A stretch of 55,878 nucleotides of DNA from a virus (taxonomy: Duplodnaviria; Heunggongvirae; Uroviricota; Caudoviricetes). The stretch lies in the IMG/VR virus record IMGVR_UViG_2839610755_000009, one strand, 5' to 3'. Positions 53,347-54,303 of this stretch are shown piece after piece; within the stretch, counting starts at the first letter, position 1; the number at the start of each line of letters is the position of its first letter. Below the pieces are notes generated by a model. That model did no database searches, was not told the origin of the DNA, and saw only the letters and a list, made by a program, of their open reading frames with translations. The position numbers and the translations under genes were made by a program.

Positions 53347-54303
53347 TTATTTTTGAATTGATTTAAACATCCCATCGAGTTGTAATTTATTTATGTCGGT
53401 TTTCTTTATGGCTTTAATTAAGTTTTCAATAACTTCCAAAGAAAAAATTACATCTTTCTTTTCAATTCTAACCCCCCCGTGGTGGCTGCAAGCATTAAGG
53501 ATGTCCTTTGTAATTTCAACATCATTTTTCATTAATGGTTCATAGTCCAGAGCCTCAATAACAGAAACTAAACTACCTAGCATTTGCTCTTGGTATTGAA
53601 CGTTGTTTAAATGCATTATACGAATATTAACAAGCATGAGAATATATTCTAAATATCTCCTGGCAGTATTTCCTTTCTCTTGTAAAGAATCACGATCATA
53701 TTCCTCAATACTCATGACTTCATTATGTAAAGAGGCTATTTTGTGCTCTGCTAATGAAATATTTATCGCATCCATGAGGTTTCGTGAGAAGCCTGTAGAT
53801 GTAACATGACCATTTGCGGGCCTTGTTAAAATACATGTAGTATAGCAATTTATATTTGGGGTCTGGATTGTCTCATTTACTCTTTTAACCGTTCTATAAA
53901 CGTCTACCATATAAGAACCTGAGTTTTCAAATGAACATGAAGAGCATTTTGTATTATATATTCTATTTAGAGATAACTGATTGTGATAGTATCCCTTTAA
54001 GAAAGCATATATAGTGTCATTAAACTCGACAAACACAACGGACTCAATATATATATGGAATTTATCATTGGGGTGCCACTCTAATTCAAGTCTTCTTGTA
54101 GAGTCATCAAAGGAAAAGTTTGAAATAAAATCCCAGTTACCTAAATCTATAAAATCAACGATATTTCTACCTGCACCATGGATATTTTTATTTATTAAAG
54201 TTGTGATTGAGTTTTTTATAATGTCCCAATCATGAATTTCATGATCGAATTTATTATTGATGGTTTCTTTTATTTGATTGGAAAAGTTTGAATAACTAGT
54301 CAC
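53347..54303 (-). CDS. orphan AT-rich cargo protein of unknown function
   Basis: 318-aa ORF, low GC, Asn/Ile/Lys-rich, inside satellite next to far att repeat. Confidence 0.6.
   Translation of the reverse strand: MTSYSNFSNQIKETINNKFDHEIHDWDIIKNSITTLINKNIHGAGRNIVDFIDLGNWDFISNFSFDDSTRRLELEWHPNDKFHIYIESVVFVEFNDTIYAFLKGYYHNQLSLNRIYNTKCSSCSFENSGSYMVDVYRTVKRVNETIQTPNINCYTTCILTRPANGHVTSTGFSRNLMDAINISLAEHKIASLHNEVMSIEEYDRDSLQEKGNTARRYLEYILMLVNIRIMHLNNVQYQEQMLGSLVSVIEALDYEPLMKNDVEITKDILNACSHHGGVRIEKKDVIFSLEVIENLIKAIKKTDINKLQLDGMFKSIQK

Follow-up and report, generated by a model that had tools for sequence, protein, structure and literature searches.

A HEPN-fold protein carried as cargo by the Sp2 satellite of Escherichia coli O157:H7, a candidate single-gene abortive-infection defence

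ECs_0304 is an accessory cargo gene at the far end of a P4-like satellite of Escherichia coli O157:H7, the element known as prophage Sp2 in strain Sakai. We studied it in a 55,878-nucleotide stretch of O157:H7 DNA (IMG/VR record IMGVR_UViG_2839610755_000009), hereafter called the window. The coding sequence (CDS) lies at positions 53347-54303 on the minus strand, stop codon included, starts with GTG and specifies a cytoplasmic two-domain protein of 318 amino acids (WP_000205213.1, annotated as 'hypothetical protein'). Strand, borders and length are exactly those of an original prediction made from the sequence, which had proposed single-gene cargo of the abortive-infection (Abi) or toxin type. 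A role of this kind, anti-phage or toxin-like, is the most likely one for ECs_0304, and we give slightly less than an even chance to its being an abortive-infection-type defence in which one gene combines a sensor with a HEPN effector, the phenotype itself being a prediction. In silico support comes from the predicted HEPN fold, the location in a known defence hotspot, the nature of other occupants of the same slot, defence-rich neighbourhoods of the homologues and the lack of a conserved partner gene.

Structure prediction, one of the checks put forward in the original prediction, gave a confident two-domain model with a C-terminal HEPN fold (AlphaFold2 with a 34-sequence alignment; mean predicted local distance difference test score 88.6, predicted template modelling score 0.84). 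The beta-rich N-terminal domain (residues 1-166; 53806-54303, minus strand) begins with two helices, continues with about 10 strands and carries the motif (I/V)VDFxDxxNWD. In an alignment of 70 family members reaching down to 15% identity, which underlies all conservation counts given here, D50 is found in 68, D58 in 69 and W76 in 65 sequences. The domain adopts a PH-like/YojF-like fold, resembling YojF (DUF1806, PDB 1njh), bacterial PH-like and HemS/ChuX-like proteins and PH/PTB domains, which are ligand- or peptide-binding folds; identity is 7-10%, scores are moderate, and these matches speak for the fold class only. We presume it to be a sensor or binding module. The C-terminal half (residues 168-318; 53350-53802, minus strand) is modelled as a helical up-down bundle of HEPN topology, the fold of many ribonuclease (RNase) toxins and Abi effectors. 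Structural matches align about 110-125 residues, all of them on this helical half, and include AbiA, Cas13b and Las1 at lower ranks. A Foldseek search of the viral structures in BFVD returned nothing at E<=0.001, and the PH-like plus HEPN architecture was not found as one unit in the PDB.

The two helices of the C-terminal domain that bear the conserved residues are 204-229 and 261-273. R215, E219, H274 and G277 are invariant (70/70), and N270 (66/70), S273 (65/70), N212 (62/70), K223 (57/70) and D275 (54/70) are strongly represented; K223 is replaced by Met in an enterobacterial subgroup that includes the ECs_0304 product. HEPN domains are typified by an Rx4-6H motif, with a polar N, D or H following the arginine, and by a second acidic residue typically within Ex3[KR] (PMC3710099). 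The latter motif is present in the family as E219 and K223, within R215-x3-E219(-x3-K223) on the first helix. The end of the second helix holds N270-x2-S273-H274-(D/H)-x-G277 at the Rx4H position, with H274 and N270 in the register of RN-x3-H, and the arginine expected at 269 is replaced by Leu (32), Ala (19) or Ser (9), giving the consensus [L/A]-N-x2-S-H. Anantharaman et al. 2013 noted that PaREP1/8 proteins likewise keep the histidine and lose the arginine, and that other conserved basic residues may substitute for it (PMC3710099). In RnlA, the upstream residues R255 and E258 are essential, as are R318 and H323 of the motif, and all of these residues come together at the canonical HEPN dimer interface (PMC8266594). 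Because the motif is kept in register, an Ex3K element and an upstream arginine are present, and RnlA offers a precedent, we read the C-terminal domain as probably an active HEPN domain with a relocated arginine.

By its fold and its E-x3-K and histidine features, the ECs_0304 product may be likened to HEPN toxins and Abi proteins. The closest known systems include the HEPN RNase toxins, both those of MNT-HEPN modules (SO_3166, 5yep; 7ae2/8xdj) and minimal HEPN proteins (1wwp, 2hsb). These share with the ECs_0304 family a histidine at the helix end following a polar asparagine and an acidic E-x3-K residue on an earlier helix, but their motif arginine is Leu, Ala or Ser in that family, where an invariant arginine stands four residues before the glutamate instead. 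In addition, ECs_0304 has no MNT antitoxin partner, its HEPN-fold domain is fused to a 166-residue beta domain and no sequence-profile similarity to these toxins is detectable. RnlA/LsoA, like ECs_0304, are multi-domain HEPN proteins which combine an upstream Arg/Glu pair with a histidine-bearing motif, in which non-HEPN N-terminal domains contribute to binding and which have an anti-phage role, for ECs_0304 a proposed one. However, RnlA retains R318-x4-H323, has TBP-like N-terminal domains and is countered by the antitoxin RnlB or Dmd, whereas the ECs_0304 product has a PH/YojF-like N-terminal domain, lacks the motif arginine and comes without an antitoxin gene. The PaREP1/8 HEPN-T proteins match the residue pattern, and one family member has a marginal PaREP1 match, yet they are archaeal, differ in architecture and bear no significant sequence relationship to ECs_0304. 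Finally, Abi2/AbiD/AbiF, AbiJ, AbiV and ApeA are comparable as one-gene cargo of mobile elements and defence islands, AT-rich, sporadic and composed of a HEPN domain with an N-terminal module; they differ in motif and N-terminal domain, and their PADLOC and Pfam models do not match ECs_0304.

Under the reading favoured here, the N-terminal PH/YojF-like domain would sense or bind a cue derived from the phage or from the infection, and the C-terminal HEPN-fold domain would act as the effector. Activation would probably involve the pairing of two HEPN domains in a dimer, the mode known from other HEPN RNases; the activated protein would then cleave host RNA, phage RNA or both, arresting the infected cell and blocking helper-independent or competing phages. 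The RNase activity, the trigger, the dimerisation and the anti-phage phenotype are the parts of this scheme that we infer. We also consider it possible, with greater reserve, that ECs_0304 represents an undescribed single-gene anti-phage system in which a PH/YojF-like sensor is coupled to an 'arginine-shifted' HEPN nuclease drawing its catalytic arginine from R215-x3-E219, fixed in O157:H7 and scattered over the Proteobacteria and Bacillota as the lone open reading frame (ORF) passed from one satellite, integrative and conjugative element (ICE), prophage or island to another.

No family had been recognised when the gene was first described as an orphan, a description that has to be abandoned: a small family exists. 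A word-indexed search recovered 36 relatives, all annotated 'hypothetical' and devoid of Pfam domains, from Escherichia, Citrobacter, Providencia, Pantoea, Pectobacterium, Proteus, Serratia, Enterobacter, Salmonella, Klebsiella, Buttiauxella and Aeromonas. When 1.84 billion cluster representatives were searched exhaustively with a profile, no more than 152 clusters were retrieved at E<=1e-3. Members from Bacillus cereus and several Paenibacillus species came to light with a second profile, and screening 185,579 species, each represented by one genome, turned up just one additional locus. The family is therefore rare, patchily distributed and cross-phylum (Proteobacteria and Bacillota). Throughout it, the N- and C-terminal domains always occur together, once each. 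Some relatives are extended by about 160 N-terminal or about 250 C-terminal residues of unrecognised nature; neither a tandem nor a second HEPN copy was found in these longer proteins, and their extensions gave no Pfam match except a weak one to DUF3775. Pfam, NCBIfam, PADLOC and PHROGs yielded sub-threshold noise only, for the ECs_0304 product as for sets of 34 and 70 family members, and weak Pfam matches to Tudor_2 and Cbl_N2 were rejected as noise.

The position of ECs_0304 agrees with a role as defence cargo. A 2026 preprint in which thousands of P4-like satellites were delimited places their main defence hotspot between int and psu-delta-sid and describes the primase-att (attachment site) interval as a minor one, with 7% of P4 systems (bioRxiv 10.64898/2026.02.27.708500); Rousset et al. 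2022 considered the psu-int hotspot only. Neither study mentions ECs_0304 by name or includes it in its tests. Like other defence cargo of P4 satellites, it sits in an interval, here the primase-att one, that varies among sister elements and has defence-like occupants. The survey of this slot in related P4-like islands that the original prediction had called for found it occupied by SIR2-like or HNH/type IV restriction endonuclease-like genes, or empty. In sister satellites at the tRNA gene thrW, the segment between the primase gene and the cis required region for replication (crr) encodes a 365-residue 'hypothetical' protein matching PADLOC SIR2 models (E 3.8e-9) in one case (locus L022, 5407-6504) and an HNH protein matching type IV methyl-directed restriction endonuclease (E 1e-10) in another (L021, 5422-6279); it is empty in strain TOE3 (L023). 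Both slot genes lie on the strand of the primase gene, ECs_0304 on the opposite one.

Elsewhere, the homologues are lone ORFs, and nucleotide similarity stops at the borders of the CDS. They recur in defence islands and mobile-element hotspots. An E. coli homologue (45% identity) directly follows the integrase gene at thrW, beside genes matching PDC-M60A/B/C (L006, 9446-14327); the products of these candidates are a 1091-residue Y4jQ-like, a 149-residue receiver-like and a 387-residue protein. In Citrobacter, the homologue (80% identity) is ICE cargo between an N6/N4 methyltransferase gene and ArdC, 3 kb from Septu PtuA/PtuB inside a type I restriction-modification locus. The Enterobacter homologue lies amid P2-like remnants, an NsnA-like DUF262 protein being encoded 2.5 kb away, the Providencia one beside Ogr/Delta and Toprim primase genes at the end of an element, and the Pantoea one at the edge of a lambdoid prophage. 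In B. cereus, the homologue is flanked by a RES/HEPN_RES_NTD1 protein and an RT_UG24 defence-associated reverse transcriptase. The complete order in this compact, integrase-linked island (L025, 2168-13005) is P4 cII-like gene, RES/HEPN_RES_NTD1 gene, homologue, RT_UG24 gene with an HD domain (1139 residues) and integrase gene, and two interspersed proteins of 311 and 294 residues have no match at all. Proteus and Aeromonas homologues occupy small chromosomal islets.

Several observations weigh against the defence reading. The arginine of the canonical Rx4-6H motif is absent from the family, and HEPN domains that have lost this motif are often non-catalytic binding modules (PMC3710099); a spatial cluster of R215, E219, N270 and H274 is presumed. 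A sequence-level link to HEPN proteins is also lacking: none of the 70 full-length members matched a Pfam HEPN model, and profile searches of PDB sequences gave only designed coiled coils and chance matches. When the C-terminal domain was scanned alone, Pfam models of the HEPN superfamily were matched by single members at non-significant values (DUF4145 0.022, PaREP1 0.035, Ribonuc_2-5A 0.17); a weak, equally non-significant match (E 0.001, two members) was to AAA_13, a model of uncertain HEPN membership. PADLOC-DB v2.0.0 gave no match to any known or candidate system for the ECs_0304 product or for the B. cereus homologue. Likewise, we found no mention of ECs0304 or WP_000205213 in the literature when searching by accession or locus tag. 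The Paenibacillus homologues (L026-L028) belong to extended arrays in which small genes, for the most part unannotated, share one strand, and not to obvious defence islands. Finally, a near-identical satellite end (L019, 905-1861; IMG/VR UViG 2923272612; 98.6% nucleotide identity) contains an intact adjacent gene for the 796-residue primase and a copy of ECs_0304 broken by several frameshifts, which reflect either real decay or homopolymer errors in AT-rich DNA.

The most serious alternative, rather unlikely in our view, is that the HEPN fold is non-catalytic and binds a nucleotide, RNA or a partner protein, the gene serving its mobile element as a regulator, an adaptor or an anti-defence or decoy factor. 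The lost arginine would fit such a role, as would the likeness of the N-terminal domain to ligand- and peptide-binding folds, and the Citrobacter homologue has ArdC, which is an anti-restriction gene, and an orphan methyltransferase gene as its neighbours in an ICE region with anti-defence genes. However, R215, E219 and H274 are invariant, and N270 and S273 nearly so, in sequences as distant as 15% identity, which is the pattern expected of a catalytic centre. The histidine and polar residue of the motif are moreover kept exactly in register, and the neighbourhoods are rich in defence systems beyond the anti-defence genes.

We consider it improbable that ECs_0304 is an addiction or stabilisation toxin, either autoinhibited or paired with an unrecognised antitoxin (supplied by the 297-bp leader upstream of the gene as a small ORF or an RNA), that keeps the satellite or island in the chromosome. 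MNT-HEPN and RnlAB toxin-antitoxin (TA) toxins are among the closest folds, the gene lies at the terminus of a mobile element and it is fixed in the O157:H7 lineage. Yet no conserved neighbour, in any orientation, accompanies the gene in at least 12 distinct homologue contexts, which argues against a type II antitoxin, and homology ends at the CDS borders, flanking DNA not being transferred with the gene. No tandem repeats and no Rfam match to an RNA antitoxin or other non-coding RNA were detected in 53150-54950, leaving a type III TA arrangement without its usual marks. A 47-residue ORF is present in the leader (54444-54587, minus strand), on the same strand as ECs_0304; as none of the homologue loci contains this DNA, it is probably spurious.

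A phage-unrelated function, such as immunity against a polymorphic toxin, or another niche or cassette function carried by mobile elements, is less probable again. It is suggested by the Paenibacillus arrays, in which genes follow each other on one strand about 200-300 bp apart and include acetyltransferase, NUDIX, DUF4284 and AHSA1/SRPBCC genes, one array having an integrase gene at its start. These arrays resemble cassette or immunity arrays and are otherwise uninformative. In contrast, the enterobacterial and Bacillus contexts are rich in defence genes and linked to integrases, satellites, ICEs or prophages, and an enzyme-like invariant R/E/H set would be unusual for an immunity protein.

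ECs_0304 is a real protein-coding gene under purifying selection. Its GTG start coincides, residue for residue in the alignment, with the ATG starts of homologues, and a Shine-Dalgarno sequence read from the DNA (GAGG, 54311-54314, minus strand) lies 7 nucleotides 5' of it. Compared with the Citrobacter and Providencia homologues (80 and 71% amino acid identity), synonymous sites are near saturation (proportion of synonymous differences, pS, 0.65-0.71) and nonsynonymous differences are few (pN 0.12-0.17), giving nonsynonymous to synonymous rate ratios (dN/dS) of 0.06-0.13. Of 5426 complete E. coli genomes, 307 have an intact copy, which shows at least 99% identity in all but one of them (306); among the carrier genomes listed, all are O157:H7 or unserotyped strains, mostly bovine or human isolates, and the gene appears to be confined to the O157:H7 lineage. 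A decaying passenger devoid of current function in O157:H7 is the least probable explanation, very unlikely in our eyes: the main-hotspot system of the satellite is pseudogenised, one near-identical element has the frameshifted copy and, at 31% GC, ECs_0304 would be a likely target of H-NS silencing, but its frame is intact in all 307 genomes (albeit of a clonal lineage), selection across genera is strong and the predicted fold is highly confident.

If active, ECs_0304 would be a new, compact (318-residue) defence or toxin gene in the sampled O157:H7 genomes, would enlarge the HEPN repertoire by a protein that joins a sensor to a HEPN domain whose catalytic residues are rearranged, and would be a concrete example of what fills the primase-crr/att hotspot, a little-studied part of P4-like satellites. 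This slot is of interest in itself, since cargo there has the alpha terminator on one side and the cis replication region on the other. A positive result would also give a functional label to a family that Pfam, NCBIfam, PADLOC and PHROGs all leave unannotated. HEPN-based single-gene cargo in a known minor hotspot is nonetheless a kind of gene that specialists anticipate at loci of this sort, and the practical value would be modest, namely a possible effect on the phage susceptibility of enterohaemorrhagic E. coli (phage biocontrol, dynamics of Shiga toxin phages).

The composition of ECs_0304 is clearly foreign, as its AT-biased codon usage had suggested. Its GC content is 0.313 overall and 0.285 at third codon positions, against 0.523 and 0.527 in the primase gene, and Ile (11.0%) and Asn (9.7%) are its two commonest residues, Lys reaching 6.3%. 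The gene does not belong to the P4-like core gene set, being absent from P4 and from the sister thrW satellites and present in non-satellite elements. Its predicted location between the primase gene and the terminal att repeat is borne out: the P4 alpha-type primase-helicase (796 residues; 50824-53214, plus strand) is convergent with ECs_0304, and a degenerate right att repeat (GGTTCCTATTATCGCACCA) follows at 54834-54852 (plus strand). The latter is the third copy in the window of the 3' end of thrW, a tRNA-Thr(CGU) gene whose exact 25-nt 3' end lies at 1420-1444; the left att repeat of the satellite (41942-41966, plus strand) is an exact 25-nt copy. The E. coli core begins at the right repeat, sequence common to most E. 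coli genomes starting at about 54830-54837, and the Sakai annotation puts the right boundary of Sp2 533 bp past the start of ECs_0304. Because att copies flank it and the E. coli backbone starts beyond, ECs_0304 is placed inside a 12.9-kb P4-like satellite at thrW.

The limits of the cargo were drawn by comparison with the empty-slot satellite of strain TOE3. Because the window aligns to it only at 52906-53242 and 54601-55100, the insertion spans about 53243-54600 (~1.36 kb, GC ~0.31) and comprises 104 bp, the CDS and the 297-bp AT-rich leader. In TOE3, the backbone order is primase stop codon, GC-rich hairpin with T7, five iteron copies of GTGAACA/TGTTCACC and att repeat, and this segment matches the 'terminator', 'crr (cis required region for replication)' and 'ori type 1 repeat' features of P4 record X51522. 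In the window, 54601-54829 is a crr-like iteron remnant of the backbone (GGTGAACA, GTGTTCAC, TGAACAG), 83.7% identical to L023 5362-5863. The whole 530 bp upstream of ECs_0304 was also considered as cargo or as an origin; this was rejected, as it consists of the leader and the crr-like remnant. The crr-like region has five copies in TOE3 (5340-5600) and about three degenerate ones in the window, with a single exact TGTTCACC; autonomous replication of Sp2 may be impaired, judging from the reduced copy number. Promoter-like hexamers occur in the leader on the minus strand (54355-54328, 54401-54373 and 54437-54408), with no excess of such sites over shuffled sequence.

The hairpin between the primase gene and ECs_0304 (53217-53247) had been described as perfect and bidirectional. 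It is real, with a perfect 10-bp core, and belongs to the satellite backbone, not to the cargo, being the stem of the P4 alpha (primase) terminator. Its bidirectional nature is only half right: the minus-strand fold is strong (-26.1 kcal/mol, z -6.3) and followed by AGUUAUUUCG, whereas the plus-strand fold, in the direction of the primase gene, is weaker (-19.3 kcal/mol) and lacks a U-tract because the T-run present after this hairpin in TOE3 gave way to the inserted cargo. The hairpin could plausibly terminate ECs_0304 but has ceased to be a textbook terminator for the primase gene.

The main psu-int hotspot of the satellite (~43314-46590) carries genes annotated as 'ABC-three component system'. 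Their AAA ATPase gene is a pseudogene in Sakai (ECs_0293) and is split in the window into ORFs of 157, 219, 196 and 188 residues; this system looks decayed while ECs_0304 is intact. Two tandem elements occupy thrW (tRNA gene at 1369-1444) in the window, a prophage of about 40.5 kb extending up to 41942-41966 and then the 12.9-kb satellite. Sakai has only the 10.6-kb Sp1 remnant at the first position, PV15-279 has an integrase gene cut by an insertion sequence, and the thrW site is thus highly variable within O157:H7.

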